64,000 bases of DNA, taken from the NCBI GenBank assembly GCA_964559475.1, contig CAZLHX010000001.1:49-64048 (forward strand), in the 5' to 3' direction. Position numbers and translations under genes: made by a program. The DNA is from an uncultured Candidatus Bathyarchaeia archaeon. GTDB lineage: Archaea; Thermoproteota; Bathyarchaeia; TCS64. A model generated the notes under the pieces. That model did not search any database. It was not told the origin of the DNA and saw only the letters and a list, made by a program, of their open reading frames with translations. Below, piece after piece: positions 14,539 through 43,534 of the stretch (the stretch's first letter is position 1; every line of letters starts with the position of its first letter).

Positions 14539-16386
14539 TTGTCGATAAAAATACTATTCAATCCCATTAACAGGGAGATAATGGCTGAAAAAGGGGACAA
14601 TCTACTCGAAAAAATGCGTGAGGAAGACATAAGAATTGAAGCACTCTGCGGGGGAAAAGGACAGTGCGGAAAATGCAAAGTTATATTAGATTCAGGCAGA
14701 GTAAAAAAGAAATCTACAACTCCAGACAAGTTCCTCTCCCCAGAAGAACTGAAACAAGGATATTATCTGGCATGCATGGTTGAACTCTTAGAGGACTGCG
14801 AGTTTACCATTCCAGCTGAGAGTAGGATAGAGAATCCAAAGATACTTCTAAGCAGTAAAATGGAGCTACCGGAGCCAAAGACTGCTATTAAAAAATACCT
14901 GATAGAGCCCATGAGAAAGACAAGTACCAGTCTTTTGCTTCAAAGCAGAGGAGTAAGGCTCCGAGAGTATAATGGACCATCACCCAGAATATCAGAGGGG
15001 ATCAATACTCAAATTAACAAGATCGGGGAAGGAGAGATTGCTACCGCTACGATTAGCCGAACTAGGGGATTTCCAGAGATAATTAATGTTGAGAAAGGGG
15101 ATACAAGAGATGAAAAATATGGATTAGCTATAGATATCGGTACTACTACAGTGGTGGTTATGCTCGTAGCCTTAGATACGGGTGATATCCTTGAATACGG
15201 GTCCGGGATGAACAAACAGATCACATACGGAGAGGACTTAGTAACTAGGATCGCATATACTAGAAGACCTGATGGTCTAAATAAATTGCAAAGCGCTGTT
15301 GTAGAGACTATTAATGGTATCATAAAAGATGTAAAGGATAAAACAAGTTTAGACATTCTGCAGATTCTCGATGTATCAGTTGGTGGTAACACAGTCATGA
15401 ACCACCTATTCGCAGGACTTGAGTCCACCTACTTAGAGTTAGCAAACATAGAAGTCCCGCGGGATCCCATCATTGTGAAAGCCAGAGATGTGGGATTAGA
15501 GATTAATCCAGAGACTTACATATACTGTCTTCCGAATGTAAGCAGATTCCTAGGGGGGGATGCTATAGGTGATGTCCTTGCGGGCAACATGCACAATCGT
15601 GATGAAATGAGCTTAATGGTGGACTTGGGTACCAATGGTGAGGTGATCTTTGGAAATAGGGAGTGGTTATTCTCTGCATCTTGTGCATCTGGACCAGCTT
15701 TTGAGGGAGAGGGTGTACGTCATGGTATGCGTGCATCGGTTGGAGGGATCGATCATATAAAGATTGACGATGAGAAATTGGAATCAGAGATATCTGTAAT
15801 TGGAGACGCTAAACCCAAAGGGATCTGTGGCTCAGGGCTTATCGACCTAGTGGCTGAGCTATTTAGAGTAGGCATCTTGGACTTTGCCGGTAAACTTGTT
15901 CCAGATAAGCCTCACGTCAGGGAGGGCAAGTGGGGGCTAGAGTACGTCGTAGTCCGCGAGGAGAAGACTTCCATTGGTAAAGACATAGTGCTTACTCAAC
16001 ATGACTTAGATTATGTTATAGATTCTAAGGCAGCAGCTTGTGGAGCCATAACGGTCCTGATGAAGAAACTCAAGATAGGAATAGAGGATGTAAAAAACAT
16101 CTTCTTGGCTGGTGCTTTCGGTACCTTCACAGATCTGGAAAACGCGAAACGTCTGGGGATATTCCCAGAGTTCCCCAACGGGATCATTATTCCTATAGGG
16201 AATGGGTCACTCTCAGGAGCATATGCAACACTTATGTCAACTGATAAGAGAGAAGAGGCAAAAGAAGTCGCAAAAAGGATGGTGTATATCGACCTGCTTG
16301 TAGACATTGAGTTTATTGATGAGTACAGTAAAGCCCTTTACCTTCCTGGAGATAAGGAATATTTCCCAACTCTTAGCCAAGCTTAA
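14539..16386 (+). CDS. Reductive activator of corrinoid Fe-S protein (RACo; ASKHA ATPase with an N-terminal 2Fe-2S ferredoxin domain)
   Basis: 615 aa. It has a plant-type ferredoxin motif (CGGKGQCGKCKV...C) and ASKHA motifs LAIDIGTTTV and VDLGTNGE. TTG start. Confidence 0.85.
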   Translation: MSIKILFNPINREIMAEKGDNLLEKMREEDIRIEALCGGKGQCGKCKVILDSGRVKKKSTTPDKFLSPEELKQGYYLACMVELLEDCEFTIPAESRIENPKILLSSKMELPEPKTAIKKYLIEPMRKTSTSLLLQSRGVRLREYNGPSPRISEGINTQINKIGEGEIATATISRTRGFPEIINVEKGDTRDEKYGLAIDIGTTTVVVMLVALDTGDILEYGSGMNKQITYGEDLVTRIAYTRRPDGLNKLQSAVVETINGIIKDVKDKTSLDILQILDVSVGGNTVMNHLFAGLESTYLELANIEVPRDPIIVKARDVGLEINPETYIYCLPNVSRFLGGDAIGDVLAGNMHNRDEMSLMVDLGTNGEVIFGNREWLFSASCASGPAFEGEGVRHGMRASVGGIDHIKIDDEKLESEISVIGDAKPKGICGSGLIDLVAELFRVGILDFAGKLVPDKPHVREGKWGLEYVVVREEKTSIGKDIVLTQHDLDYVIDSKAAACGAITVLMKKLKIGIEDVKNIFLAGAFGTFTDLENAKRLGIFPEFPNGIIIPIGNGSLSGAYATLMSTDKREEAKEVAKRMVYIDLLVDIEFIDEYSKALYLPGDKEYFPTLSQA

Positions 16387-16451
16387 CCTTTAACTTATCC
16401 GATATCAGTATATCCATATTAAAATAGCACACGCAAGGTAACGATGGCAAA

Positions 16452-17222
16452 ATGGGAGAAACAATCGTAATTACAGGCAGAGGAGGAACAGGAAAAAGTA
16501 CTTTCACTTCCTTATTTTCAAGGACTTTAGGAGAGAATGGTATAGAACCTCTACTAATGATAGATTCTGATCCAGATGAGAGTCTAGCAGATATGATGGG
16601 TATTAATCTCAAAAGCAATGGTAAGAAATCTATCGCAGAAGTTCTCGGTGAAATACTTAAAGAAAGAAAAATGTCCCAGATGGTAGGAATGTCCCCTACA
16701 GATAAGATAGAACCCTTCCTCTTTCAAGAGACTCTATGGGAGGGGAGAAGTTATTTCGATTTCCTTAAGGTAGGAGTTAAGTGGATAGAAGGGTGTTATT
16801 GTTTACCAGACAGGGCTCTAAGCCAGATTATGGATAGGTGGAGTGAAAACTATGTCTACCTGATCGTGGATAGCCCTGCAGGTGTGGAACATCTTAACAG
16901 ACGTATAACTAAAAAGGTGAAGGATGTCTTCAATATACTTGATCCATCAAAAAAGAGTTTTGATAATGCATTTAGAACTCATAAACTAATGAATGAAGTA
17001 GACATCGAGTTCGATAACTATTACTTGGTTGGCGGGTATAGATTCCCAGAATCTCTAGTTAAAGAAGCGAAAAAACAGCCCTTCAAATTCCTGGGAAAAA
17101 TTGAAGATAATGAAAAAGTTATGAGCTACAACCTTGAAGGAAAGCCATTACTAGATCTACCGAAAGATAACCCCACTTATCAATCAGTGATCAGTATTGC
17201 AAGAAAAGCTGGATACCCCTGA
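16452..17222 (+). CDS. CooC/AcsF-type Ni-insertion ATPase, paralog 1
   Basis: 256 aa. The deviant Walker A is GRGGTGKST and the CxC metal motif is EGCYCLP. Confidence 0.8.
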   Translation: MGETIVITGRGGTGKSTFTSLFSRTLGENGIEPLLMIDSDPDESLADMMGINLKSNGKKSIAEVLGEILKERKMSQMVGMSPTDKIEPFLFQETLWEGRSYFDFLKVGVKWIEGCYCLPDRALSQIMDRWSENYVYLIVDSPAGVEHLNRRITKKVKDVFNILDPSKKSFDNAFRTHKLMNEVDIEFDNYYLVGGYRFPESLVKEAKKQPFKFLGKIEDNEKVMSYNLEGKPLLDLPKDNPTYQSVISIARKAGYP

Positions 17223-18029: not shown

Positions 18030-18038
18030 AGATCCTCA

Positions 18039-18878
18039 ATGAAGATTAAGACCATCACCTTTCAAACCAAATACTGGAGACCAGGAACAGATTATGTAAA
18101 TGAAATAATCAAAAAAATTTCTCCTCATCTACAACATGGGGACATTATATCGGTATCAGAAAAAGCAATATCAACTGCTACTGGCAATATAGTAGATGAA
18201 GCTAAAATAAAACCAGGAAAAATGGCAAAACTTCTCGCCAATATATGGACGAGGAAAATGTGGGTGAAATTCTTAGGAAAAATTTGCAGATTAAAAACCC
18301 AAACACTAGAAAATCTAAAAAATTACCCTGATATAGAAGGCTCTCGTCACAAAGAGGTAGCGTTACGTTATGCTGGTCTCTTACAGAGCTTAAGACATTA
18401 TTCAGAAGGGGGTATTGATGCAAGCAACTTGCCTTATTCCTATGTTAGCCTTCCTTTGTATGATTCAGAAAAAATCGCGAAAAAAATCAAAGAGAAAATA
18501 GACAATTCTTGTAAGAAAAAAGTGACTGTCATGATATGCGATGGCGATACCACCCATAGTTGGAGAAATCTGCATCTCGCACCTAGAAAGGTATCTACCC
18601 CAGGTTTGATACATTTCGGAGGATTCTTGACTTTCGTAATAGGAAGAGCCTTAAGGCTAAAAGAAAGACAAACTCCGATAACAATTTCTGGAGAAGGTAT
18701 AAATCCTGACCGTCTTTTATGGCTGGCTCAACTCTTTCACAAACTATCTGGAGGTGGAGCAGGGAGAACTGTTTGGAGTATGGCAGAAAAAATGGAAACC
18801 GAGCTTACTGGGATCACATATGAAATGCTCGAGTCTGTACCTCATTTTCCTATTACAATAATTAGAATACTCAACTGA
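18039..18878 (+). CDS. CofE-like (F420-0:gamma-glutamyl ligase family) protein
   Basis: 279 aa. VSEKAISTATGNIV and EGGIDASNLP resemble the CofE/F420_ligase core. The specific substrate is unknown. Confidence 0.55.
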   Translation: MKIKTITFQTKYWRPGTDYVNEIIKKISPHLQHGDIISVSEKAISTATGNIVDEAKIKPGKMAKLLANIWTRKMWVKFLGKICRLKTQTLENLKNYPDIEGSRHKEVALRYAGLLQSLRHYSEGGIDASNLPYSYVSLPLYDSEKIAKKIKEKIDNSCKKKVTVMICDGDTTHSWRNLHLAPRKVSTPGLIHFGGFLTFVIGRALRLKERQTPITISGEGINPDRLLWLAQLFHKLSGGGAGRTVWSMAEKMETELTGITYEMLESVPHFPITIIRILN

Positions 18879-20439
18879 ATAAGGAGTCATCCTGTACATA
18901 ACTTCTACCCAGTTTTAAGGCGATGAAAGCTTTCTCTAGTTCCTTGCCAAGATAAGCAGCGTGGTCAAATTTGCTTATTAGGTTTTCTCGTATAATTGTT
19001 TGATAGATTTCTCTGGAATTAGACCCCTTAATGATAATGTCGGGTTCTTCTTCCCCTATATTGTAATGTATGGCTGCTATGCTATTGGTCTCCCTATCAA
19101 TAAGGATCTTAAACCATCCTTCGGGGTCCATAATAAACTCGTCCTCTGGATATCCCCTTATAACATCGTAATTTATCTCTAAATCACTATTATAATCTGG
19201 TTCTACTTTGCGTTTCTCTTTTAGAACTAATAGATCTATTCCTAGATCTTTAGGGATTGCCCCTTTCATCTGTGCTAGCCACATCATCTTTGAAGCTGTA
19301 ACAGCCTCTTTTACGCTTCCATATGCTTTGTCACTGTACTCTGGAATATGGAGCATGTTTGCACCTACTTCAGAAGCAAGAGCTGTTAATGAGGCATTTA
19401 CTCCCACAGAGTCAGCGTCTATTAGCTCCGTTACATTTCCCATTCCGAATAGAATGGGCATATCTGAGTATTTTTTCTTGAACATTCTGTAGGAGTCTAG
19501 AGAGTCCATTAATCCAGGGTTTATCAAAGGCTCTACCACGAGATCGGCTATTATTTTCTTTACCCCTCGCTCTTTAGCAAGTACAATATTAGTTTCCATT
19601 TTTCGAACTCTTTGTTCTGGTTTACGAGGTAAATATCCTTCTTTCATATTTGTGGGGAGAAGGACGATCGCTGTTTCCGCTATGCTTGATGTTATTTCAG
19701 ACATGTTTCCTGCATCTAAGCTTAGGATCAAGTCGACATCCAAGTCTAATGCCGTGTTAATCTCATCGGGATCAAGTGAGTCTATACTTATGGGTAGTCC
19801 TGTAACATTTCTAATAGTCTGAAAAATATTTTCTATAGAGTCAGGCATGGGGTTTCCTGCGAGCATCCCCACGTCAATTATATGAGCACCCTTGTTTTCA
19901 TAGTAGATAGCTTTCTGCTCAATCATTTCTAAATCCAGTAGAGGTGCATTAACAATCTCTGCGATAATCCTCATGGGAAACCCATTTCCGACTGGAACAC
20001 GAGCCCTTCCTTTACCAATTATAATTCCTCCCTTAGTCTTTAGGACTCTTTTCCAGTTTTCCTCTACTTTCCTGATCTCGGATAACGCTTTCTCTCTAAT
20101 CTGTTCTCTCAACATCAAATTTGCAGGCTGTTCCTTACTTAGAGAGACCTCTGGGTCAAGAGCTAGGAGAATCTCAGAAGCATGGATGGGTCCCTTGTAC
20201 GTAAGTATTCCTGTCGCCTTCTCTACCACTGTAACGTCCCCGCTGATAGTACCAGGAACTAGTATCATATCATAATTGGGAAGAGTTTGATTCTCTAGAT
20301 TTCTGGCAATCATCTCAGGGGTTAAGAATGCTGCGACAGTAACAGGCATTACAAATACATCTATCTCATGTTCTAAACCTGAAATACCCCTTCGAACCTC
20401 AGCTTCAGCTACTCTTCCGGTAACAACAAGAACCTTCAA
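18871..20439 (-). CDS. Dihydropteroate synthase-related protein of methanopterin biosynthesis (MJ0107-like, with a C-terminal DUF4346-like domain)
   Basis: 522 aa. The central pterin-binding TIM barrel carries AHIIDVG and ISIDS. The length and three-domain layout match the archaeal DHPS-related family. Confidence 0.75.
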   Translation of the reverse strand: MKVLVVTGRVAEAEVRRGISGLEHEIDVFVMPVTVAAFLTPEMIARNLENQTLPNYDMILVPGTISGDVTVVEKATGILTYKGPIHASEILLALDPEVSLSKEQPANLMLREQIREKALSEIRKVEENWKRVLKTKGGIIIGKGRARVPVGNGFPMRIIAEIVNAPLLDLEMIEQKAIYYENKGAHIIDVGMLAGNPMPDSIENIFQTIRNVTGLPISIDSLDPDEINTALDLDVDLILSLDAGNMSEITSSIAETAIVLLPTNMKEGYLPRKPEQRVRKMETNIVLAKERGVKKIIADLVVEPLINPGLMDSLDSYRMFKKKYSDMPILFGMGNVTELIDADSVGVNASLTALASEVGANMLHIPEYSDKAYGSVKEAVTASKMMWLAQMKGAIPKDLGIDLLVLKEKRKVEPDYNSDLEINYDVIRGYPEDEFIMDPEGWFKILIDRETNSIAAIHYNIGEEEPDIIIKGSNSREIYQTIIRENLISKFDHAAYLGKELEKAFIALKLGRSYVQDDSLFS

Positions 20440-20442
20440 TTT

Positions 20443-21420
20443 CTAATCCCCAGTAACTACAACATTTGCTCCAGAGTTTTTAGGTCTAGATACAAATGAA
20501 TAACCTGGTATTCCTTCCTCTTCAAAATAAACTTCTAGTTCAGCAGATAGTTTTTCCGCATGCTTCTGATCATGTGCAAGACCGTAGAAGGCTGGTCCCC
20601 ATGAACTCTGACCTGCACCATAAGCACCATTTTCCAATAAGAAATTAACCCCTTTGTAAATGAATGGATGACCGTATCGTCCTCCCTGCACCTTTACCCA
20701 GTAATCCCCAAATATAGAGTCCATCTTAGTCATGGCACTACCAAAAACCTGGATATCTTCTTCCAGTATTCCAGGTAACATGTTCAGAAGAACTGTGTGG
20801 GAGATCTTCCATACTAGTTTTTTAGGTGGAGGCTCTAAGCTTTTAAACGCGTTATTTTCATTTTTCCCGGCTACTCTTAAATTAATCTCTGGCACACCTA
20901 TTATGAAACGCCATTCTTCAGGAATGTCACATCTAAATAACATTGGTGGGATTACATCGGGTTCATCAGTCTTTCTTCCACCATCTAGAATAAAACCGCC
21001 GTGAAGGAAAAGGTAGGTTCCTATACCTGAGCGTCTACTCCTCTCAAGAATATGCGCTCCCTTTAATAAGTCAATATCTAGCCTGTATAACTTTTTGATG
21101 GCTGAGACGACTGCTAATGCTAGTTGAGTGCCTGAACCAAACCCATAATGTTCTGGTATATCGGATAAAACCTTGAATTTAACGCCACCCTGAATTCCAG
21201 TGTAATTAATTATTTCCTTTGCATTACTGATAACCCGTTCAGATCGATATCCTTCAGCAGCAATTTCATCAGACTTTTCAGCTTCCATTATTATACTAGG
21301 TTTATCTATAGCTACTCCAGCGCTCCCGTGTATTCTACCTGAATCACCCCTAAGATCGATTATCCCAAAGTGGAGCCTCGAAGGAGTAATTACTTTTACC
21401 CTCAATGTTCCCCACTCCAC
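20443..21420 (-). CDS. Beta-ribofuranosylaminobenzene 5'-phosphate (beta-RFAP) synthase, GHMP-kinase fold
   Basis: 325 aa. TPSRLHFGIIDL at the N-terminus and HYGFGSGTQLALA (GHMP motif II-like) match the MJ1427 family. Confidence 0.8.
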   Translation of the reverse strand: MEWGTLRVKVITPSRLHFGIIDLRGDSGRIHGSAGVAIDKPSIIMEAEKSDEIAAEGYRSERVISNAKEIINYTGIQGGVKFKVLSDIPEHYGFGSGTQLALAVVSAIKKLYRLDIDLLKGAHILERSRRSGIGTYLFLHGGFILDGGRKTDEPDVIPPMLFRCDIPEEWRFIIGVPEINLRVAGKNENNAFKSLEPPPKKLVWKISHTVLLNMLPGILEEDIQVFGSAMTKMDSIFGDYWVKVQGGRYGHPFIYKGVNFLLENGAYGAGQSSWGPAFYGLAHDQKHAEKLSAELEVYFEEEGIPGYSFVSRPKNSGANVVVTGD

Positions 21421-22043
21421 ACCTTCAACAGGCCCTCAATCTTATCTACAACTCTCATCTCGGGAGAATCCTCACCTGAAATTCTCTTAATCAGTCTTAT
21501 AGATTCCCAAATTTTTTCCTCTAATAGATCAGCCGTATCATACTTACCCTGTTCCTTATATGCTTTAACTCTAGTAGCATGGATCACAGCCTCAATGGCT
21601 TCCGATGTGCCTCTACTGAATACTCTTGGGTAACTGTGATATATCTTGATATCCTTCACTATATTGATAAAAGAAAAACGATCATCAGATAACTCAGAGC
21701 TTTCAAATTTCTCTAAGGATAAACTAGCCTCAGAATCCTTCAGATCGTGATCCACAAATTTAAAATCATAATTAAATTCATCTTTGAAAGCAGCAACCAG
21801 AAAAATATAGGGATCATTAATAATGTTAACGTATGAGACGTCACTACGTTGAAGGTTCTTATAAGTTCTTGATGACTTAAAGGGTTTGATCTCCATCAAA
21901 GAACCCCTAATCCATGATAATCCCATAGGCGCTGGATTAAGGGATTCATCCTCGTTTTTTGTTACCAGTATGGTTTCCACTATGCAATTCTCCCTAAATC
22001 CTAGGTCAATTATTGTATCGATTATTTGATTTTTCAAAGCCAT
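21402..22043 (-). CDS. DUF447 family protein (FMN-binding split-barrel-like), linked to the H4MPT cluster
   Basis: 213 aa. ETILVTKNEDESLNPAPMG is the characteristic DUF447 N-terminal motif. It overlaps the beta-RFAP synthase start by 19 nt. Confidence 0.6.
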   Translation of the reverse strand: MALKNQIIDTIIDLGFRENCIVETILVTKNEDESLNPAPMGLSWIRGSLMEIKPFKSSRTYKNLQRSDVSYVNIINDPYIFLVAAFKDEFNYDFKFVDHDLKDSEASLSLEKFESSELSDDRFSFINIVKDIKIYHSYPRVFSRGTSEAIEAVIHATRVKAYKEQGKYDTADLLEEKIWESIRLIKRISGEDSPEMRVVDKIEGLLKVWSGEH

Positions 22044-22087
22044 CAGCGAGCTGATTTATAACCAATTAACCATAGTTTATAAAATAT

Positions 22088-23077
22088 CTATTCATCCAAT
22101 AGACGTACAGGAAGAAGATAATCACCCTTTCTTCCCAAAACTAAACGATAGGCTATTTTATTTCCTTCCCAGACTTTCTCCAAAGTTCCTCGAGCTTCAA
22201 TAAGCTCCCCTTTTTTGACTTGCTCAGTAAATTTTCCTCTGTAACTTAATAATTCAATGGGCTCATTATCAGAGGAAATCTCCAGCATATATTTGCAGGG
22301 GGTAAATATTCCTTCACTATCATCTTTTATGGTTTTTCTAATTTTTACAACTTCAATAGGTTCACTCTTATCTGGAATATTTATGGGTTTTATTAGACGA
22401 ATAAAGTAGTCTTTATCCTCTACCCTACCGTGAAGTACTTTGTTTGTCTCAATTTCTAAGAAAAGTTTCAGATCCAGACCAGTATTAGACCATCTAGATT
22501 CTAGAACATTTTTTACCGTCTTTTTAGTATATGGTTTTAACCAATTTGAATCTAATCTAAGTTTCTTTAATGCATCATATACTCTTTTACTTTGTTCAAA
22601 CCCATACACGTTGATGTCTATATCGGAGTCTGGAGTATGCATGTCTATCAATATTGATCCTGTGATTCCAAAGCATTCTAGAGGAACCTCGCTTTCCTCG
22701 TTTAATGCATAAACAATTTTTCTTAAAATCTTGATTGGTTTTTGGTTGGAAGTATCAATTATTTCTTTTAACTTTTCTCTGGGCTTGTATATCTTCTTGA
22801 TATTGCTTATGGGAACTGATTGTGTGGTAATTCCAAGTCTTGGTATATAGGATAGGTAATGAGGATAATTTTTTTCAAGAAATCTTTTGGTTTTAACTAG
22901 GTTGTATACCCGTTTATACCTAGAAGTATTCTTGACTCTATCACCCCCTTTGTCTGGAATGTATCTAAGGACGGATAGAACTTTATCTTCTGGATGAAAC
23001 ATTCCTTTTACAGTGAAATATAATCCCTCAGAGGTTTCGATATAGTCTCCTTCTTGAAAATGGTTCGGGTCAGACAA
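22088..23077 (-). CDS. Pol-beta superfamily nucleotidyltransferase-like protein, paralog 1 (N-terminal domain, NTase core, beta-rich C-terminal domain)
   Basis: 329 aa. The intact NTase signature is GITGSILIDMHTPDSDIDINVYG. It is a clear paralog of 32566..33591, with shared DYIETSEGLYF/DFIETKEGLLF and KKIYKPREKL/KQYYKPKERL. Confidence 0.6.
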   Translation of the reverse strand: MSDPNHFQEGDYIETSEGLYFTVKGMFHPEDKVLSVLRYIPDKGGDRVKNTSRYKRVYNLVKTKRFLEKNYPHYLSYIPRLGITTQSVPISNIKKIYKPREKLKEIIDTSNQKPIKILRKIVYALNEESEVPLECFGITGSILIDMHTPDSDIDINVYGFEQSKRVYDALKKLRLDSNWLKPYTKKTVKNVLESRWSNTGLDLKLFLEIETNKVLHGRVEDKDYFIRLIKPINIPDKSEPIEVVKIRKTIKDDSEGIFTPCKYMLEISSDNEPIELLSYRGKFTEQVKKGELIEARGTLEKVWEGNKIAYRLVLGRKGDYLLPVRLLDE

Positions 23078-24089: not shown

Positions 24090-24578
24090 GCCAAAAATCT
24101 CTTCTATCAACTCACTACATTTACTCTGTTTAGTAGCTTGAACATATCTTAGATAATGAGGATACATACTCATCCACTCTTTCACACCTTTATCGGTGAT
24201 ATAGCCTTTGAGTTTCCCATTTTCGGTAACTGCTAGGCTATTGATATCGAATTTTGTCATGATGTCGAATGCTTCCTCGATTGTGTTCCCCATATTAATA
24301 GTTATCACCGGGGTGCAAATCAGATTCTCTACTTTAATCTTATCCCTGGGTAAGTCTGATTCTGCTAGCCATTTTAATACATCAAACATATTGAAACATC
24401 CAACAGGTTCACCGTCTTCCAGGGCAACGATATCTCCGTGATAGTTTTCCTGTACAGTTGTAATGACTTCTACTAAGTTCTGAGTAATTTCAGCGGTTGG
24501 AACAGTTTTATCCATAAGTACGCGGCATGGAAGCTTGCAGAACTCAGGATCTAACACCCGGTTTACCATTGAGATCAA
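24069..24578 (-). CDS. CBS-domain pair protein
   Basis: 169 aa with two CBS-like repeats (VALEDGEPVGCFNMFDVL, AVTENGKLKGYITDKGV). It converges on the CitG-like gene and overlaps it by 21 nt. Confidence 0.7.
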   Translation of the reverse strand: MISMVNRVLDPEFCKLPCRVLMDKTVPTAEITQNLVEVITTVQENYHGDIVALEDGEPVGCFNMFDVLKWLAESDLPRDKIKVENLICTPVITINMGNTIEEAFDIMTKFDINSLAVTENGKLKGYITDKGVKEWMSMYPHYLRYVQATKQSKCSELIEEIFGSGSPSP

Positions 24579-25210: not shown

Positions 25211-25218
25211 GGAATTAA

Positions 25219-25561: not shown

Positions 25562-25571
25562 GTGTAGGGTT

Positions 25572-26522: not shown

Positions 26523-26536
26523 ACGGAGGATAATCT

Positions 26537-34990: not shown

Positions 34991-35001
34991 ACCATTTCCT
35001 C

Positions 35002-36327
35002 CTATACTTTTATCCTAACCCAGTCCGTGGGCTCGGGGGGTCTCTCTCCTTTCATAAGATTGTCTATTGTATTGCTGATGCTGTTAACTGCAGCTGGATG
35101 CATCATCATGAAGTAATCAACTCCTGCTAACAACAACGTTTGTGCTGTCACGGTTTCCCATATAGGTCCTCTGAGTTCACGGGGGGCAAATTCTGGGCCC
35201 ATTTTCATCCATGCTTCTCTTGCTGCCCAAGCATTAGTTGAACCAGATGATAGTGGGTGGTTTAACTCTGGATCTCCTTTAAGTGCTGCTAGTCTACATC
35301 GTTCCATCACGGTAAAAGCATAATCTAGACCGTATCCGAGGGCTGCCGTTGTGGTGTCCATTAATATCTGTTCTTTTTCTACGAAATCGTATAGTTTCCG
35401 GTTTAACTCCCTTGCCTTGTTTACGTCCATGCTCGTGAAGGCAATTACTGTGTTATTATAATCCCTTACCAGTTTGGCTGTTTCCTCAATCTTCATGTCC
35501 AATGTTACTGAGTTGAATAATAGGTTCTCTCCTTGGACATTCTCTGATATTGCTTTGAAAACTTCAAAATCTTTCTGTGGGTCTCCACATCCTCCTATAC
35601 TTATGGGCACGTCAACTGCTTCAACGACCTGTTCTACTGTCTTTACAGCTTCTTTTGGTGGTGCATCTTCTATTAGTGGATCTATAGTTAGAAGGTGTAC
35701 GTTAACCATTTCTGCTCCGTATTTCTCCACACATACACGTGACCACTCAGCCACATCATCTTTATATTCATCAAAGTGATTACGCACTGCTCTCGCGAGA
35801 CTGATCTTAGGCCAATCGAATACGTCAAGAGCGATTACTGGCTTATTAGGAGTGAGCTGTATAAAATTATAGAAAGCTGGAACCTTTTCTCCCCCAATAA
35901 CATAGGAGACTGAGCGGGTTCCACCTTCAGAAGATGTTGCTCCTAGCTTTACCTCAACTACTTCTCCTGGATACTCAGGAGTGGGCATACTTGCTTCATC
36001 TTGAAGTAGTTTATCAGGTTTGACTCTTTCTGGTGCCCTGTGTTGAATTTGTGTTTGTTGAACCTGTTGAGACATTGGCATGGAGGGAGCGCCAAGGAGA
36101 CTTGCCATTCTATTGGCTGAATCTCTAATTAACGCAAACTCATATCCAAGTCTAGCAAGTATGGGAGAGGATATTCCTCCGCTTCCAGCTTGGACATCAA
36201 ACTCTATCTCCTCGAGTTCGACGTCAAATTCTTCGAGTTCTACTTCCTCAAATTTTGCTATTTTTTCTAGTAAATCCCTACTAATAACTAGGTCTAGTTT
36301 ATCTTTTTCAGTCAACCTGGTCCTCAC
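35002..36327 (-). CDS. cdhD: CODH/ACS delta subunit (corrinoid Fe-S protein small subunit)
   Basis: 441 aa with a TIM-barrel pterin-binding-like C-terminal part. It occupies the expected operon position between cdhC and cdhE. Confidence 0.88.
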   Translation of the reverse strand: MRTRLTEKDKLDLVISRDLLEKIAKFEEVELEEFDVELEEIEFDVQAGSGGISSPILARLGYEFALIRDSANRMASLLGAPSMPMSQQVQQTQIQHRAPERVKPDKLLQDEASMPTPEYPGEVVEVKLGATSSEGGTRSVSYVIGGEKVPAFYNFIQLTPNKPVIALDVFDWPKISLARAVRNHFDEYKDDVAEWSRVCVEKYGAEMVNVHLLTIDPLIEDAPPKEAVKTVEQVVEAVDVPISIGGCGDPQKDFEVFKAISENVQGENLLFNSVTLDMKIEETAKLVRDYNNTVIAFTSMDVNKARELNRKLYDFVEKEQILMDTTTAALGYGLDYAFTVMERCRLAALKGDPELNHPLSSGSTNAWAAREAWMKMGPEFAPRELRGPIWETVTAQTLLLAGVDYFMMMHPAAVNSISNTIDNLMKGERPPEPTDWVRIKV

Positions 36328-37760
36328 TCCTTAACTACTTTTATGATTACTTTCTCTGCTTTTATTTTGGCATTTTTTAGGGTAATGCGGATTTTCATAC
36401 CCGAAGGTAATCCAGGCATAGATTGAGCTGGTAGCTGCATCGTCGGCATTGTAAAAGTAGATGGCATCTGTTGCATTTGATGGAATTGTTGCATTTGTTG
36501 TGGGGCTGATGGTTCTTCTTTAAGGGCTTCTTCCGTTTCTTCTGGCCATCTGTCTACGATTGGGTGTTCCTTCTCCTGTAACCAGCTCTCTAAGGTATCG
36601 AGGTCCATGGCATCATCTTCAGTGGTGATCTTTGATTTAATCTCCTCGGGTATGAATTCTTCAACTCTGCTCATTATATCCTTAGGCATCCAGACTATTC
36701 GGTCCCATCCTCCATCTGCCTGTAAGAATTTTGGGCTTCTCATATACTCAATGCTGAGGCCGTGGAATCCATCGACCTGTCTACCTCCAGCTGTCAGATC
36801 ACTTATAGTAACGAATGTGAGGCCGTTTACAGTCTCACCTTTATAATTTCTATCAACTATTCCAAATCCATCTACCTCAGGAATATAGAAAGCGCAGCCT
36901 TCAAAGCAGCCACAGCTGGTATGTGGGTATCCGAATGCGGTGTATAGTTGTACTCTTTCGATCTCTCCCAAGCTCTTATCTTGAATAACTTGATTTACTT
37001 CAGCGTATTCACCCGTTAGATCATCTAAAAGCTCTCCCTTAGGTATAGAAAAGACTGGTCCTTTTGGATCAACTTTTTCAGTGGCTCTTCCGTCGAACCA
37101 GCTTATAGCTCCACAGTTAGCGTACCTCTGAGGTGTAATGACGCATAGATGGGTTGGTGCAAAGCTCTGGCATAGACTGCATCCGTAGAATACGTCCACC
37201 TCATCGTCGCTCATTCCTCGGGCGCGTGCATCTCTTGCCTCGTAGATCTCCATAGCTTCATCGTATAATTCTTTTAATTTGTCTAAATCTGTGATAAACG
37301 TGATCTGCATTTTCTCAATAAATGGCATCTCACTCTTGTACAGTCTCATTAAGACTTCTCCGAACATCTTGAAGCTGTTAAATCCCTTCTGATAGCTCTT
37401 TTTACTTAACCTCATCTGGATGTCATACCTTTGATTAAGGTGCATGAATCCTTCGATGAAGTTTACGTACTCATGAAGTCTTCTCTCAATGACTCCTTCC
37501 AGATCCTTTTCAATCTCTTCCCCTGCAACTTCAATTATCATACCGAAAGGAGAGTTGGTTCCTTCAGGTAGTTCTGAGATATCTTTTCCAACTATCTCGA
37601 ATTTACCATCCTCAATATCATCCATACCCTTGGCTGTAACAAGTTCAAACTTGTAATCCTCTCTTGGACCACCGAGTTCGACTTGCATGTCTCTTCCACG
37701 GATTCTCTCACCCTCATAAATAATTCCAACATCTACAGGGATATCATCAAATAAACTCAT
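36324..37760 (-). CDS. cdhC: CODH/ACS beta subunit (acetyl-CoA synthase, A-cluster)
   Basis: 478 aa. Cluster motifs are CSLCQSFAPTHLCVITP, ANCGAISW and TSCGCFE. An archaeal-type Q/M/P-rich C-terminal extension is present. Confidence 0.93.
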   Translation of the reverse strand: MSLFDDIPVDVGIIYEGERIRGRDMQVELGGPREDYKFELVTAKGMDDIEDGKFEIVGKDISELPEGTNSPFGMIIEVAGEEIEKDLEGVIERRLHEYVNFIEGFMHLNQRYDIQMRLSKKSYQKGFNSFKMFGEVLMRLYKSEMPFIEKMQITFITDLDKLKELYDEAMEIYEARDARARGMSDDEVDVFYGCSLCQSFAPTHLCVITPQRYANCGAISWFDGRATEKVDPKGPVFSIPKGELLDDLTGEYAEVNQVIQDKSLGEIERVQLYTAFGYPHTSCGCFEGCAFYIPEVDGFGIVDRNYKGETVNGLTFVTISDLTAGGRQVDGFHGLSIEYMRSPKFLQADGGWDRIVWMPKDIMSRVEEFIPEEIKSKITTEDDAMDLDTLESWLQEKEHPIVDRWPEETEEALKEEPSAPQQMQQFHQMQQMPSTFTMPTMQLPAQSMPGLPSGMKIRITLKNAKIKAEKVIIKVVKE

Positions 37761-38305
37761 TTCTTAGCCTCCTCTAAGTTTGTAATAATCTCATCTAATT
37801 CCTCTTGCCATTTTTTATTTGGCGTGGACCCCATTGACCATTGCGCATTAGGTTGATATGAATTACTTAACGACATGGTTTTAAGATCAGGAGCGAAGTT
37901 TTTTAGCCCTGATAGTACAAGCCACTCCATATAATAGGGTGCACCTGCAAATAGTATAAGGTCATATTGTCCGTTTCCATCAAAACCATTCCAAGTGGGA
38001 TCCCTTAAACGGTCTCCTAGATTCATCATGGGCATACTCTGAACCATTGTACCTCTTTCTTTAAAATCTTTGATCAGATGGCCTGTAGCTGCTACGGTAA
38101 TTTTTCCAATTTTCTGTAATCTTATAGCAGTATCTATCAAGTCTCCATCTTTGGTAGATATATTTGGTGATTCTGAGCCAATAACCAAGAGGGGTCGCTC
38201 TGATTTCTTGATCATGGAAGCTGCCACTTTAGGGTTTGGTATCACAAATGCTTTTTTTGGACCCGCTATTTCCGCAGTCTGACCTGTCCTCATTTTTGCA
38301 GACAT
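37757..38305 (-). CDS. cdhB: CODH/ACS epsilon subunit
   Basis: 182 aa. Its size and its position immediately after cdhA (1-nt overlap) fit. Confidence 0.85.
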   Translation of the reverse strand: MSAKMRTGQTAEIAGPKKAFVIPNPKVAASMIKKSERPLLVIGSESPNISTKDGDLIDTAIRLQKIGKITVAATGHLIKDFKERGTMVQSMPMMNLGDRLRDPTWNGFDGNGQYDLILFAGAPYYMEWLVLSGLKNFAPDLKTMSLSNSYQPNAQWSMGSTPNKKWQEELDEIITNLEEAKK

Positions 38306-40650
38306 TAATCCCGTCTCCTAATCATTCTATCGAGTAGGGTAGGATCAGGCATACCAATCTTTCCTTCTTCCCAACCAGTATCTTCGAGTATTCCAAGTAT
38401 TTCCTCTTTCATCGTGAATGGAAGATCAGCCTCTCTTCTAACATAAAGATGTAAGTCATCAGGCATAGTATCATAATATCTTTTGTGAAGATCGATGTAA
38501 TGGCTTATCTTGACAGCTCTGCCTTTTGAAGTATCATTAGGCCGCATAGTTAATTTAGCTGCCATAACCATTGCTTCCTCTAGAGTTTCAGCTGCGTAAA
38601 ATAGGTGTTCAGGGGAAGGCCCAACATACATTTCCTCACCCGTCCTAGCATCATAAGTTATCCAATCTTCATCTTTATCTTTTCTTCCAAGAAGGTTTCT
38701 TCGGTATTTTGACCCATGTGGACCGACGATAACAGGTATCCCGAGTCTCCAGCAACCCGCGGCTATACTTGCAGCTTTCTGTGACATCGCCCCCCAAGCT
38801 ATACCTACGGCTCCAACACGATTATAGACATAATCAGCAATTTCCTCATAGTTAGCTCTTAATGATCGCTTAGCAAAGATATTTGCTATCTTTATTGTTG
38901 CTCCAGTTATATGCGCATTTGATACACAGCTTCCGATATTCACGAGACCTCCCGCGTCGAAGTACCCAGGGAACTTCTCGTAGAGGTTTTGACCTTCCTC
39001 ATCTTTTGTTAACGCAATATCCATAGCTGAGCAACCTGTAGCCAATACAATGAACCTTCGTTTCAAGAACTCCTCGGCTATCTTCGCAACCTCTTCTCCT
39101 CCTTTAGGATAATTTGCACATCCTACAAGTGCAACCACTCCTGGAATCTCTCCGAAAACTATTGCCCTTCCTACTTCACGAATTTCAACATCTGTGACGG
39201 CTCCTCGTCCAACCCTAATTGGATATTTTTCTGCTGTTTTCAGTTCAGTTGACGCTCTATAAAGAAAACTAACTAGCGGTATTCCTTCCGGACATGCACT
39301 CTCACATCGTCCACATCCAACACAGTAATCCTGAAGCTCGGCTAATGGTGCTAAGTTTCCTTCTCTTGCAGCCTGTACAGCATCCATTATTGGTAGACTA
39401 TTTGGACAAGCTCTGACACATTCCATGCAGTTTCTACACGTCTCTGCCAGTTCGAAGAGTTGTTCTTTTGAGAATGCCTTGAATTCTTTTCTCTTAGGAG
39501 CCATTTTTAGTGCAGTTTTTACAACTACCTCTCCAACTTTCTTAGGTTCGATTATTAATACCCCTGGGGTTTTCCCTTCCACTAAATCGTTAACTATTTC
39601 ATCAGGTGGATCATGTGTTCTGTTGGGAAGCCCTAACATGCTTTTTTCGCTTGTTGCGATTACTGGGGCACCAATTTTCCTTGCCTCATCAACAATATCT
39701 GTTCTTAAACATTGTTCATCTACGACTACGACATCTGGTATTCCGGATCTTATGTATCTTAGTTGCCAAGATATTGGTCCCATTATTTTTGCTCTTTTAT
39801 CATATCTGCTATTATCATGGGCTGTACAACATAATCCACCTACTTCTACTTCTCCAAAAAGCCCATTTTCCATTAAATAGTCGATTATGTCAACGCTTGG
39901 AAGAACATTGTGACCAATACACATGATAACTGTTTTTGATGGATCAATCGCACCAAACCCGATATCAGTCATAGGTGGATCAGCCACACCTTTAGGCATA
40001 TTTAGTGTGGATATCTGACAAATATCGGCAACTTCCATTGCTACATGGTCAAGCATACCTGCATGGAAGGCTTTCGACTCAAAATCTATATTATCACCCT
40101 CCTGTCCAGTATGGGCTGCAGCGGTTAATTGTACAAGCTGTGTTTCAACATAATCCAGAGCATCTTCGAGGTCGCTTAGTGTTCTAGGACGTATTCCACA
40201 TACAAGTCTTGTATTTGGTGCTTCCACATTTGTATTAACCGCGATATCTAACACATGATCTCGACCGTATTCTTCTAACAGGTGTTCAAGCATATGTCTT
40301 GCATGGGCACAGTGTGTTGATGCTCCTATACAACATGCAAGTAGAACAATTCTGGATTGTTGTCCAGCCATTGTTATTCCACAAGCACCTTTCTTGTCTG
40401 CTGTTAAATCACATTTCCCGAAGGTACACAGACAACAAAGGTCACAGAAAGGCATGTAAAAGGGCTTATACCTGTTGAGAAGTTTTAGATCCCACTCTCT
40501 GAGAGTACCAACTGAAGGCATAGGAGTTGGCCCCATGGGTTCTTCCCATTCTTCATCAATTATTTTTCCGATCTGTATGTCAAGTCCTTTGAAGACACCT
40601 AAATCTGATTTAAGCTCATCAATTTTTAGTCTTAGATCTTTTTTAGCCAA
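38305..40650 (-). CDS. cdhA: CODH/ACS alpha subunit (Ni-CODH catalytic subunit with inserted 2x[4Fe-4S] ferredoxin domain)
   Basis: 781 aa with PMGPTPMPS, CDLCCLCTFGKCDL and a ferredoxin insert (CRNCMECVRACP...CVGCGRCESACP). TTG start with GGAG 8 nt upstream. Confidence 0.93.
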   Translation of the reverse strand: MAKKDLRLKIDELKSDLGVFKGLDIQIGKIIDEEWEEPMGPTPMPSVGTLREWDLKLLNRYKPFYMPFCDLCCLCTFGKCDLTADKKGACGITMAGQQSRIVLLACCIGASTHCAHARHMLEHLLEEYGRDHVLDIAVNTNVEAPNTRLVCGIRPRTLSDLEDALDYVETQLVQLTAAAHTGQEGDNIDFESKAFHAGMLDHVAMEVADICQISTLNMPKGVADPPMTDIGFGAIDPSKTVIMCIGHNVLPSVDIIDYLMENGLFGEVEVGGLCCTAHDNSRYDKRAKIMGPISWQLRYIRSGIPDVVVVDEQCLRTDIVDEARKIGAPVIATSEKSMLGLPNRTHDPPDEIVNDLVEGKTPGVLIIEPKKVGEVVVKTALKMAPKRKEFKAFSKEQLFELAETCRNCMECVRACPNSLPIMDAVQAAREGNLAPLAELQDYCVGCGRCESACPEGIPLVSFLYRASTELKTAEKYPIRVGRGAVTDVEIREVGRAIVFGEIPGVVALVGCANYPKGGEEVAKIAEEFLKRRFIVLATGCSAMDIALTKDEEGQNLYEKFPGYFDAGGLVNIGSCVSNAHITGATIKIANIFAKRSLRANYEEIADYVYNRVGAVGIAWGAMSQKAASIAAGCWRLGIPVIVGPHGSKYRRNLLGRKDKDEDWITYDARTGEEMYVGPSPEHLFYAAETLEEAMVMAAKLTMRPNDTSKGRAVKISHYIDLHKRYYDTMPDDLHLYVRREADLPFTMKEEILGILEDTGWEEGKIGMPDPTLLDRMIRRRD

Positions 40651-40664
40651 AATTCCATCTCCTT

Positions 40665-40796: not shown

Positions 40797-41720
40797 ATGA
40801 CTCAAAGACCGGCTTATAGTCAGTTAGTAAAGGATATTCGGAAGGGTAAATTTGTTCTAACAGGTGAACTTGAGCCAGAGAAGGTAACTAGCCTAGAAGA
40901 AATTATTCACAGTGCTAAAGCAATGAAACCTTACGTAGTCGCTGCAAACGTAACAGATAACCCATTAGCATATGCCTACATGAACAGTCTAATACCATCT
41001 TGGAAAGTTCAAGAAGAAGTAGGACTCGAGACAGTCTATCAAGTGACTGTAAGAGACCGTAATCGCCTAGCATTAACTTCTGATATTCTTGCAGCAGCTC
41101 ATCTTGGTATTAAAAATGTTCTCGCGCTTTCTGGAGATCATACAGTACTGGGAGATAACAGACAAGCTAATTCAGTGTACGATATTGATTCGGCTCAGTT
41201 CGTATACTTATTAGGTAAAATGATTGACGAAGGTGAAGATCTCGCAGGCAACGAAATTCATGGAGATGTAAATATTAACGTGGGTATTGCGGCAAACCCT
41301 AACGCCAATCCTTTGATGCCTGAAGTCCTTAAAATTGGTAGGAAGACGAAGATTGGATCAGATTTTATACAAACCCAGACCATGTTCGATATCGATAGGA
41401 CAAAAGAATTTCTGAAAGAAATGGAGAAGTATAAAACACCAGTATTGGTAGGTATATTCCCACTCAAAGGATTCACCATCGCTGACTTTTTTGATAAGTA
41501 TATACCTGGAGTGTCTGTTCCTCAGGAGTTAATGGAGAACATGTATAAAGCCAAACAAGAACCTGACTCTGAGATTCGTAAACAAAAATATGATGAGGTA
41601 AACCTAGAATTCTTCAGGCCATTCATTAAAGAGATACATAAAACAACTCATGCAGCTGGTATACACGTAATGGCTGTATTATATGAAAGAATCTTTGACC
41701 CGTTATTGGAGGCTTTCTAA
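40797..41720 (+). CDS. metF: Methylenetetrahydrofolate reductase-like protein (acetogen-type MetF)
   Basis: 307 aa with a TIM-barrel MTHFR fold (VLTGELEP, VTDNP, LALSGDH, FIQTQ). Confidence 0.85.
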   Translation: MTQRPAYSQLVKDIRKGKFVLTGELEPEKVTSLEEIIHSAKAMKPYVVAANVTDNPLAYAYMNSLIPSWKVQEEVGLETVYQVTVRDRNRLALTSDILAAAHLGIKNVLALSGDHTVLGDNRQANSVYDIDSAQFVYLLGKMIDEGEDLAGNEIHGDVNINVGIAANPNANPLMPEVLKIGRKTKIGSDFIQTQTMFDIDRTKEFLKEMEKYKTPVLVGIFPLKGFTIADFFDKYIPGVSVPQELMENMYKAKQEPDSEIRKQKYDEVNLEFFRPFIKEIHKTTHAAGIHVMAVLYERIFDPLLEAF

Positions 41721-41721
41721 G

Positions 41722-42357
41722 ATGATAATTACTGAGCAAAAACCCTTTGAAAAAGTCTCAGAGATGATTGATCAATACAAAAAGATCTTCATCGTGGGAT
41801 GTGGAACCTGCAGCACCAGTTGTCAGACTGGTGGAGAAGAAGAAGTCAAAGAGATGGCTGAAAAACTAGGAGACAGAGTAAACGGATGGGCCATGGTAGA
41901 GGACCCATGTGACTTAAGGCTTGACCGCAGAGATCTAAGAGACTATAAAAAGGAGATTGCTGAATCTGATGCAGTCTTAGTTATGGCATGTGGTGCAGGC
42001 GTTCAGACTGTAAGTGATTTCACTAAAAAGATAACATTACCGGCTCTAAATACGCTATTCATCGGTCAGACTGAGAGACTTGGAAAATTCCATGATACCT
42101 GTAAGGCTTGTGGAGACTGTATCCTCGATGAAACAGGGGGAGTCTGCCCCATTACCAGGTGCGCTAAAGGTCTGTTGAATGGTCCCTGTGGAGGACAGGT
42201 AGATGGAAAATGCGAGGTAGGGGACTATGAGAACGAGTGCGCGTGGATACAGATCTATGATAGATTGGAAGAACAAGGTAGACTGGATCTTTTCACAACA
42301 TTCAGACCACCAAGAGACTTCTCTAAAAAGACTCTGAAAATGCACCACTATTTCTAA
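41722..42357 (+). CDS. metV: MetV-like Cys-rich MTHFR-associated subunit
   Basis: About 211 aa from the ATG at 41722, 1 nt after the metF stop. Cys clusters are GCGTCSTSC, CKACGDC, CPITRCAKGLLNGPCGG and KCE..x..ECAW. Confidence 0.8.
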   Translation: MIITEQKPFEKVSEMIDQYKKIFIVGCGTCSTSCQTGGEEEVKEMAEKLGDRVNGWAMVEDPCDLRLDRRDLRDYKKEIAESDAVLVMACGAGVQTVSDFTKKITLPALNTLFIGQTERLGKFHDTCKACGDCILDETGGVCPITRCAKGLLNGPCGGQVDGKCEVGDYENECAWIQIYDRLEEQGRLDLFTTFRPPRDFSKKTLKMHHYF

Positions 42358-42899
42358 TCCACTAATATATTTTTTAGAGCTTTTTTTATCTTATCAGGAC
42401 TCTCTAATACAGATATTCCATCCATTTCTTCAAGTTTTCTGACATTCAGCACATCTTCTTTTCTTACTCTCAACCTCAAAGTTTTTCCGTTAGGAAGAAC
42501 TGTTACCGTTTCTCCTTCGCGGAAGTCAGTAGGCATAATATAAACAGGAACATATCCCTTTATGCCTTGTATAATAGCATTTGTAAGAAGAGTATCAGAT
42601 ATTCCAACAGCAATTTTTGCCACTGTATTGCTCGTTGCGGGGGCAATTAAAAGTAAGTCGAACTCCTTCATCTGTAGACGACCGGTTAGAAATGGTGTAT
42701 TTGCATCTTTTTCTATCCAAACCTTATCAAAAGAGGCCCCCAAATCCTCGTAAATTTTGTAGTATTTTGATACAAGGTAACCAGCTTCCGATAAATAAAT
42801 CTCTACAATTAATTGTTTTTCTTGTTTGATGCTCTTTAAAATTTCAACTGTTTCTAGAAGTTTATCTCCTCCGCCAGTTATCCCCCAAGCAATCTTCAT
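42354..42899 (-). CDS. Archaeal flavoprotein AfpA/DmrB-like (PF02441-type flavoprotein)
   Basis: 181 aa with KIAWGITGGGD and LLIAPATSNTVAKIAVGISDTLLTNA. Its stop codon overlaps the metV stop codon on the opposite strand. Confidence 0.7.
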   Translation of the reverse strand: MKIAWGITGGGDKLLETVEILKSIKQEKQLIVEIYLSEAGYLVSKYYKIYEDLGASFDKVWIEKDANTPFLTGRLQMKEFDLLLIAPATSNTVAKIAVGISDTLLTNAIIQGIKGYVPVYIMPTDFREGETVTVLPNGKTLRLRVRKEDVLNVRKLEEMDGISVLESPDKIKKALKNILVD

Positions 42900-43534
42900 C
42901 TACTATTCTCCAAGTATTCGATTAGATGTTTTACAGTTTTATTCACAGTTTTCATGCCATATTTATCCTGTTTTATTCCTTCCATGGAATCCTTTGACCA
43001 TAAGGATGCCCCAAGATTGGCGCCATATGCTCCACCGCTCAAGGGAATTGCCTCAGTTAGTAGGTAAAAAGAGTGGAGCTGAAGTAATGCTAATTCTTGT
43101 CCTCCTGCCCGGTCCCCGCCTACTGCAATTGCTATACATGGTTTATTTTTTAATGCCTCAGGGTTTTTGGAGAATAGTGCTCTGGTTCTATCTAAGACTG
43201 CTTTGAGTTGTGCACTTACTCCTCCGTTGTATACAGGGGTTGCCATTATTATGGCTTCAGCTTCCTCAATCATAGGATAAAGATCCTGTATATCATCTTT
43301 GATGATACATTTTTTCTCTTTTAGACAAAAATCACAATGTATACAAAACCCGATTTTTTTACCCTTTACACTCCAGAATACTGTATCATATCCTTCATCT
43401 TCAAGGGTGATCAATGATTTTTTAAGTACATATTCTGTTGTTCTTGCTCTGGGGCTACCACATAACCCGAGGATCATAAGAATTCTATCACTCCGGGAGG
43501 TAAAATATTTACTAAAATCAGGATTCAAATACAT
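42896..43534 (-). CDS. Iron-sulfur flavoprotein (Isf-like NADPH-dependent FMN reductase fold with a compact Cys cluster)
   Basis: 212 aa with ILGLCGSPR and the cluster motif CIHCDFCLKEKKC. Confidence 0.7.
   Translation of the reverse strand: MYLNPDFSKYFTSRSDRILMILGLCGSPRARTTEYVLKKSLITLEDEGYDTVFWSVKGKKIGFCIHCDFCLKEKKCIIKDDIQDLYPMIEEAEAIIMATPVYNGGVSAQLKAVLDRTRALFSKNPEALKNKPCIAIAVGGDRAGGQELALLQLHSFYLLTEAIPLSGGAYGANLGASLWSKDSMEGIKQDKYGMKTVNKTVKHLIEYLENSR

Follow-up and report, generated by a model that had tools for sequence, protein, structure and literature searches.

An uncultured Candidatus Bathyarchaeia archaeon carries a 29-kb block of adjacent genes that brings together most enzymes of the archaeal Wood-Ljungdahl pathway with genes for their metal centres and cofactors. 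The block occupies positions 14539-43534 of the window, by which we mean the whole 64,000-nucleotide stretch analysed (G000:C1:49-64048); its source, G000, is a metagenome-assembled genome (MAG) of 2.76 Mb in 197 contigs, with an estimated completeness of 96% and contamination of 7.68%. Judged by gene families, five functions appear to be joined: the Fwd, Ftr and Mch steps from CO2 to methenyl-tetrahydromethanopterin (methenyl-H4MPT); carbon monoxide dehydrogenase/acetyl-CoA synthase (CODH/ACS); CODH/ACS helpers, namely RACo, which reactivates the corrinoid, and two CooC-type ATPases that insert Ni; a MetFV-type methylene reductase; and genes for cofactor tailoring (DHPS-like, RFAP synthase, CitG-like, two nucleotidyltransferases (NTases), DUF447, MptN-like, CofE-like and AfpA/Isf). 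This gene content is accompanied by tight junctions, a gene order conserved among relatives and a composition native to the genome, and the same modules are scattered in the sister genus. Very likely, in our view, the block is a super-cluster of the chromosome that is passed on vertically and characterises one genus-level lineage of Bathyarchaeia.

The original observation of an almost gapless 29-kb block was borne out. All 29 predicted open reading frames (ORFs) were present, forming eight transcription units by strand, and 98.1% of the block is coding, versus 89.6% and 86.1% of the two flanks. Seventeen of the 28 internal junctions are zero or negative (range -1 to -38 nt), and the median junction is -1 nt inside the block and +95 nt outside it (Mann-Whitney p = 2.6e-7). 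Overlaps of 1-21 nt, convergent gene ends included, had been noted; the overlaps are real and four of them are convergent, but the upper limit was too low, as an overlap of -38 nt occurs at metV, a value that hinges on the longest-ORF start chosen for this gene, same-strand overlaps being start-dependent in general. The four convergent stop-to-stop overlaps at unit boundaries (-8, -21, -17 and -4 nt) are independent of start choice. There are only three divergent intergenic regions, of 76, 119 and 146 bp, and these are the only obvious promoter regions between units. Nearly all of the gene names first given were backed by Pfam/NCBIfam profile searches.

The gene order was compared by taking 40 kb around ftr from 20 relatives and mapping all window proteins on them (below, G-numbers denote the relative genomes compared, and L-numbers matching loci or metagenome contigs). 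At least ten independent assemblies of the same GTDB genus have the identical gene order. In G017, G018 and G019 a single contig spans RACo to metV and also holds AfpA/Isf; the same order is found in G006, G002, G010, G020 and G025 as far as their contigs extend, in G027, G003 and G030 by marker spacing, and in two Joint Genome Institute (JGI) metagenome contigs of an 83%-identical relative (L135 is among the metagenome contigs with this order). The pterin genes of unit 2 keep their order in G002, G006, G010, G017, G018, G019 and L135. Of the 31 other genus genomes, 18 have Ftr and CdhE on one contig, with a spacing of 3.5-4.2 kb in every case; the DHPS-like gene and RACo are likewise together on a contig in 18 (within ~1 kb of the window's spacing), and Ftr and the DHPS-like gene in 9; marker spacing revealed no contradictory arrangement among these 31 genomes. 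Variation within the genus is limited to the AfpA/Isf pair, which stands at the RACo end in G010, G017, G018 and G019 and beside metV in the window, G020 and G025, and to a gap in G010, where the metFV pair is not at its usual position. The order inside the block is kept across species whose proteins are 45-85% identical and whose flanks are reshuffled. A synteny comparison with related MAGs had been proposed at the outset, with the proviso that the block would lose interest if its order were ordinary in the closest cultivated relatives. The order proved to be ordinary in the closest relatives, all of them uncultivated and within one GTDB genus, indicating that it characterises the genus and is not specific to this genome.

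Other Bathyarchaeia have the same gene families, and the core is common to the same family and order, but contiguity of the whole is not. In G036, a complete 2.3-Mb chromosome of the sister genus whose ftr coordinates coincide with locus L001 (record CP070784.1), four modules lie up to ~1.4 Mb apart, with fwd/ftr at 1.864 Mb, RACo at 1.771 Mb, two cdhA genes at 2.098 and 2.115 Mb and the DHPS-like/CitG-like genes at 0.661-0.665 Mb. A genome of the same family, G034, has the order ArsR-mch-fwd-ftr-fwdC-ligase-cdhEDC, and G038, of the same order, has cdh, RACo, metFV, the NTases, the ligase, fwd and mch in a different arrangement, without the pterin genes. The mch-fwdDBA-ftr-fwdC-ligase core recurs in Bathyarchaeia loci of the same family and order, with an NTase next to it in most, and fwd/ftr/mch neighbourhoods are retained in other orders, often with the MptN-like ligase. 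Small fusions occur in other families: an NTase pair lies by ftr in G046 and G053, the CofE-like gene adjoins ftr in G048 and G049, and cdh lies by fwd in G047. In five genomes (G046, G048, G049, G053 and G054), ftr and cdh are on separate contigs.

The block had also been called potentially transferable, and a mobile or recently transferred one-carbon (C1) genomic island, moving as a unit between Bathyarchaeia, would explain why the flanks differ between genus sub-clades while the block ends at the same genes, and why the AfpA/Isf pair stands at one end in some genomes and at the other end in others, as would result from opening of the block at varying points. We regard such an island as very unlikely. 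The tetranucleotide distance of the block to its genome lies at the 35th percentile of 29 equal-size genome windows, and its GC content (40.2%) equals that of the genome (40.6%). No tRNA was found in the window, and the flank ORFs scanned include neither an integrase nor a transposase, border repeats not having been searched for; those ORFs are housekeeping genes (among them BKACE, MFS, GNAT, aminotransferase, TFB, archease and RtcB). Close relatives keep the flanks, the BKACE-MFS-GNAT left flank being common to the window and the 83%-identical relative, and so do members of one sub-clade (G017/G006/G019; G018/G010); that the flanks differ between sub-clades indicates that they turn over more quickly than the block itself. 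The occurrences, ten or more in number, all fall within one genus. In concatenated trees of five modules, built for the seven taxa with complete data, every module recovered the pairs (WIN,G002), WIN being the window, and (G006,G019). The pterin, maturation and tail modules also recovered (G010,G018) with 90-100% support, matching the groups defined by the flanks; the fwd module did not reject this pair (approximately unbiased (AU) test, p = 0.40), and the cofactor genes rejected the alternative to it (AU test, p = 4e-4). With native composition, a shared left flank, no integrase or transposase in the flank ORFs scanned and four of the five module trees in agreement, the idea of a transferable module was not supported.

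Several observations nevertheless weigh against our favoured reading of the block, and the first two also speak for an island. Phylogenetic congruence, proposed as a check on the block, holds for the fwd, pterin, maturation and tail trees and fails for cdh: the AU test rejects a G010+G018 clade for this module (p ~1e-95). Single-gene trees traced the conflict to cdhA (38305-40650) alone, whose strongly supported tree sets (G018,(G006,G019)) against ((WIN,G002),(G010,G017)), indicating that the block is not a perfectly co-inherited unit. Because a second cdh operon exists on contig C12 of the source genome and cdhA is duplicated in G036, paralog exchange or recombination within the genus is a plausible cause. 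In G007, a high-quality member of the same genus (96% complete, 1.5 Mb), none of the six markers tested (Ftr, FwdA, DHPS-like, CdhE, CdhC and RACo) was found. With the usual reservation for a MAG, this gap fits a reduced genome that has lost the block as a whole, and equally the gain or loss of an island; in G026 (98% complete), Ftr, FwdA and the DHPS-like gene were found and CdhE, CdhC and RACo were not. The direction of change fits both assembly of the block in the genus ancestor and fragmentation in the sister genus, and no operator motif shared among the block's intergenic regions was found. The adjacency might alternatively be a neutral by-product of rearrangement or compaction, with no functional meaning beyond single operons; dispersal in G036 and in other orders does not keep the modules from working, a single transcript is impossible because the units differ in orientation, and Mtd and Mer are not in the block. 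We think this unlikely, given that the order is kept in at least ten species-level assemblies with reshuffled flanks, that the block is denser than its surroundings and has four convergent overlaps, and that other Bathyarchaeia families place cofactor genes with ftr/fwd and cdh with fwd. That the contig is a chimera of assembly or binning is hardly conceivable. The MAG is fragmented and partly contaminated, and the divergent cdh operon on C12 could be another organism's, but the identical order was assembled independently in other studies, for example on contigs of 127 kb and 126 kb and on the two JGI contigs, and the block's composition matches the rest of the MAG.

If the block is, as we favour, a vertically inherited super-cluster, the comparison of genus, family and order traces step by step how such a cluster forms or falls apart. 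The fwd/ftr/mch genes and the ligase would be the oldest core; cdh, metFV and RACo would have joined at the level of the order, and the pterin module and the RACo-CooC genes within the genus. Selection for co-expression and co-inheritance of the enzymes with the cofactors and metal centres that they need may hold the block together, with the embedded ArsR-type regulator and the three short divergent promoter regions as likely control points. The view that the consolidation is selectable is a reasonable one: it is real and non-random, it outlives its reshuffled surroundings, and it fits selection for linkage or co-regulation. The arrangement is far beyond chance. On its own, the block does not suffice: Mtd, Mer and a second CODH/ACS operon are encoded elsewhere in the genome.

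The central part of the block is unit 5 (+, 24698..33591), ten genes in the order PK-C-like-ArsR-mch-fwdDBA-ftr-fwdC-ligase-NTase2. An ArsR-type helix-turn-helix regulator gene (25219-25515, +) is its second gene, and mch, fwdD, fwdB, fwdA, ftr and fwdC (+) stand between this gene and the ligase. FwdB scored 561 bits with TIGR03129 (cut-off 328) and FwdC 249 bits with TIGR03122 (cut-off 131); FwdA matches PF07969, FwdD PF01568, Ftr PF01913/PF02741 and Mch PF02289 (1e-109), so that formylmethanofuran dehydrogenase subunits, Ftr and Mch of the archaeal Wood-Ljungdahl set are all present. The 25 best Ftr loci, 71-81% identical, are all from Bathyarchaeota/Bathyarchaeia MAGs. Mtd (C39:9773-10591) and Mer (C158:1458-2432; 415 bits, cut-off 349) were found on other contigs. 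A luciferase-like F420-dependent gene just outside the block (46063-46911) was examined as a possible hidden Mer but scored too low to be one (67 bits against the cut-off of 349). The block holds most enzymes of the Wood-Ljungdahl pathway, including MetFV, but not the whole pathway, with Mtd and the true Mer lying on other contigs.

Beyond Bathyarchaeia, and L026 apart, the best Ftr matches among L027-L080 were mostly Planctomycetota MAGs (40-55% identity), with a few Nitrososphaeria, Desulfurococcales-labelled and proteobacterial contigs scattered among them. L026 (DATLAV010000118.1), labelled Patescibacteria, carries a Bathyarchaeia-type ftr, and the proteins P0021, P0169 and P0264 are labelled Krumholzibacteriaceae. 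Such bacterially labelled contigs, which hold either a Bathyarchaeia-type ftr with the NTase paralog or the NTases with the PK-C-like protein, are probably mis-binned archaeal contigs.

Unit 1 (+), RACo-CooC-CooC-CofE-like, opens the block with RACo, the reductive activator of the corrinoid/Fe-S protein (14539..16386, +), which matches PF14574 (3.8e-88), PF17651 and PF00111 and has the domains Fer2, Raco_middle and RACo_C_ter; its orthologs at the same position in genus members are 65-77% identical. The two following genes (16452-17222 and 17223-18029, +) encode divergent CooC-family Ni-insertion ATPases with CbiA/ParA-type P-loop matches, and the best PDB match of both is CooC 3kje (E 2.1e-11 and 1.7e-44). 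Unit 6 (-, 33575..40650) is the cdhA-B-C-D-E operon, convergent with unit 5 by a 17-nt overlap. Its products match PF03063 with Fer4, PF02552, PF03598 with PF19436, and PF03599 twice, that is, Prismane with Fer4, CO_dh, CdhC with ACS_CODH_B_C and CdhD twice (one with an FeS domain), so that all five subunits of CODH/ACS are present; their orthologs among genus members are 67-87% identical. A second complete cdhA-B-C-D-E operon was found at G000 C12:18143-27568, accompanied by a separate RACo-like gene and a CooC; identity to the window copies is 45-67%, and G004:C55 is of the same type. This second operon could be a true paralogous CODH/ACS or a contaminant contig of the 7.7%-contaminated MAG.

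Unit 7 (+, 40797..42357) consists of metF-metV, matching PF02219 (MTHFR) and PF12225, with MetV corresponding to DUF5981. It diverges from cdhA over the 146-bp intergenic region, a divergence also kept in G038, which is of another family of the same order. For archaeal-type MetFV, which is known from Bathyarchaeota, H4MPT-bound C1 units have been proposed as the substrates in anaerobic methanotrophic (ANME-1) archaea (PMC9012536). The position of metFV beside cdh and H4MPT genes, together with its conserved divergence from cdhA, supports this MetF-on-H4MPT hypothesis, and the true Mer elsewhere in the genome indicates that MetFV is not simply a Mer replacement here.

The remaining genes of the block were assigned mostly to cofactor tailoring. 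The fourth gene of unit 1 (18039..18878, +) encodes a CofE-family paralog (PF01996, 3.1e-20), a candidate gamma-glutamyl ligase for the methanofuran or H4MPT tail, with 59-65% identity in genus members. It is not CofE itself (TIGR01916, 51 bits versus a cut-off of 180.65); the true CofE is at C2:34895-35629 (306 bits). The only studied analogue of this gene in an H4MPT/furan island is MyfA (OrfY), the methylofuran glutamate ligase (PMC8141765). Unit 2 (-, 18871..23077) holds the H4MPT side-chain genes in the transcription order NTase1-DUF447-RFAP synthase-DHPS-like. The DHPS-like gene (18871-20439, -) reached 407 bits with TIGR00284 (cut-off 257), and the beta-RFAP synthase family gene (20443-21420, -) scored above the cut-off of TIGR00144. 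The DUF447 protein (21402-22043, -) matches PDB chains 2iml, 2nr4 and 2ptf, which we take to be FMN-binding split barrels. In families f3 and f4 of the same order (G038-G044), Ftr, CdhE and RACo are present and no TIGR00284-type DHPS-like gene was found at E <= 1e-30; these genomes may use a different enzyme for the DHPS-like H4MPT step.

Unit 3 (+) is the CitG-family gene (23154..24089, +), divergent from unit 2 across the 76-bp region. The family assignment is clear (PF01874, 7.5e-65; 220 bits versus 27), and as the CitG/MdcB triphosphoribosyl-dephospho-CoA synthase it stayed below the cut-offs, the equivalog models giving 36-47 bits against 272-282. Unit 4 (-) is a CBS-domain protein gene (24069..24578, -; PF00571), convergent with the CitG-like gene by a 21-nt overlap and found at the same position in genus members. 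The first gene of unit 5 (24698-25210, +) encodes a small PK-C-like/MTH1675-like protein that fell into no family in the profile searches and matches MTH1675 and AF0103 (1t57, 1vp8), some orthologs of which carry PF02887 (pyruvate-kinase C-terminal domain). Near its end, the RimK/MptN-like ligase (31670-32569, +) belongs to the RimK family by TIGR00768 (222 bits versus 143); as MptN, the H4MPT:alpha-L-glutamate ligase, it stayed below the cut-off (NF040720, 279.8 bits versus 350). Unit 8 (-, 42354..43534), Isf-AfpA, is convergent with metV and comprises an Isf-like FMN reductase (42896-43534, -; FMN_red, PF03358) and the archaeoflavoprotein AfpA (42354-42899, -; TIGR02699, 245.5 bits versus a cut-off of 192.45), for which the DmrX-type model stayed below its cut-off (TIGR02700, 136.8 bits versus 251). 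Directly past the block end lies a small ORF without a family (43593-43871), of which no ortholog was found beside the block in the other genus sub-clades.

The two NTase genes are full-length paralogs with 31% identity (E 3e-32). NTase 1 (22088-23077, -) has a weak match to PF01909 (Pol-beta-type NTase), and NTase 2 (32566-33591, +) is without a family match of its own. PDB sequence searches with both gave nothing meaningful. An AlphaFold2 model of NTase 2 was confident (pLDDT 93, pTM 0.89), and a Foldseek search of the PDB with it returned only weak partial OB-fold matches (SSB, LysRS; best E 8e-3 over ~105 residues) and no whole-protein analogue. In the model these matches are placed in the beta-rich C-terminal part, an apparent OB-fold tail, and the predicted fold neither confirms nor excludes a CitX-like role. 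Homolog searches for the NTases and the PK-C-like protein covered the 120 best matches and did not address methanogens; among these matches, all organism names were Bathyarchaeota save a few Krumholzibacteriaceae-labelled entries.

It had been argued that every uncharacterised gene in the block is a strong candidate for a role in the pathway and that the embedded unknowns would need to be conserved beyond this genome. Such conservation was found: all five (18039-18878, 21402-22043, 22088-23077, 24698-25210 and 32566-33591) keep their place across the genus, with 36-65% identity. The claim was too broad in that some of the families (CofE-like, CitG-like, ATP-grasp and AfpA) are known from methylotroph islands, and the DUF447 family also occurs in Haloferax volcanii, which uses folate, and in Sulfolobus acidocaldarius, so that it is not H4MPT-specific. 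To our knowledge, the later steps of H4MPT biosynthesis lack assigned genes. We tentatively suggest, as a possibility that we rate below even, that the conserved unknowns encode the missing H4MPT side-chain steps and possibly also those of the methanofuran glutamyl tail. In this scheme, ATP would supply a 5-triphospho-alpha-ribosyl group, to be transferred by the CitG-like enzyme to the ribitol of the RFAP-derived intermediate; a CitX/MdcG-like role, in which pyrophosphate is displaced and a phosphodiester to hydroxyglutarate is formed, would fall to one or both NTase paralogs; the likely flavoproteins DUF447 and AfpA/Isf would perform reductions; and the MptN-like and CofE-like ligases would add glutamates. 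By analogy, the pairing of CitG with an NTase suggests CitG/CitX-like chemistry for the ribosyl-phosphate-hydroxyglutarate tail of H4MPT. If this is true, the block would be a near-complete parts list for a cofactor pathway with unassigned later steps. The candidates for unassigned H4MPT and methanofuran steps are narrowed to a short, conserved and experimentally tractable list.

Two intergenic regions carry palindromic or repeated elements. Between a TATA-like box and the cdhA start, a palindrome lies at 40665-40681 (ATCACGTTTAACGTGAT); the corresponding sequences are CCAATGGGTTCCATTGG in G002 and CTACATGGTAG in G006. The position is conserved and the sequence differs between the three, and the window version has a single occurrence in the block and four in the genome as a whole. 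Being single in the block and not conserved in sequence among relatives, it was dropped as a regulon signal; it may be a fast-evolving operator or a hairpin of the 5' untranslated region. The other element is a direct repeat of two copies of TTTTAAGTTAC (24600-24645), located in the 119-bp divergent region ahead of the PK-C-like/ArsR/mch unit. It is a candidate site for binding of the embedded ArsR-type regulator, though its sequence is not conserved in relatives.

The literature searched, from which key older papers were missing, yielded no account of this super-cluster. In model methanogens, these modules are dispersed. By functional analogy, the block is the archaeal counterpart of the acs cluster of acetogens, which in acetogenic Clostridia and Moorella contains acsA-E, cooC/acsF, metF/metV, fhs/fchA/folD and a RACo-type activator. 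Both gather CODH/ACS, two Ni-insertion ATPases, a corrinoid activator and MetF/MetV beside methyl-branch enzymes in one dense chromosomal block. Unlike the acetogens' methyl branch, which is of the folate type, that of the block uses methanofuran and H4MPT (Fwd, Ftr and Mch); the block also differs in its five-subunit archaeal Cdh, in its embedded cofactor-biosynthesis genes and in having Mtd and Mer encoded elsewhere. The MetF-MetV pairing is the same in both (PMC9012536).

Compared by gene family, without direct sequence comparison, the block also resembles the 'archaeal-like' islands of methylotrophs in placing C1-transfer enzymes together with pterin and furan cofactor genes. Those islands also hold RFAP synthase (mptG), a CitG-like gene (orf7) and AfpA/DmrB-type flavoproteins, and we know of no counterpart in them of the two NTase paralogs or the PK-C-like protein. 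Unlike the block, they are bacterial, serve formaldehyde oxidation and are without CODH/ACS, RACo, CooC and MetFV. These H4MPT/methylofuran islands, for example that of Methylorubrum extorquens, comprise fhcABCD, mch, orf5/9/17/19-22 and orfY (PMC8141765, PMC5020050), among which Orf5 and Orf17 are ATP-grasp ligases and OrfY is the CofE-like ligase MyfA (PMC8141765). An archaeal lineage thus appears to have converged on the layout of the acetogen acs clusters and the methylotroph H4MPT islands, with everything in one place, and to have added both cofactor synthesis and metallocentre maturation to it.

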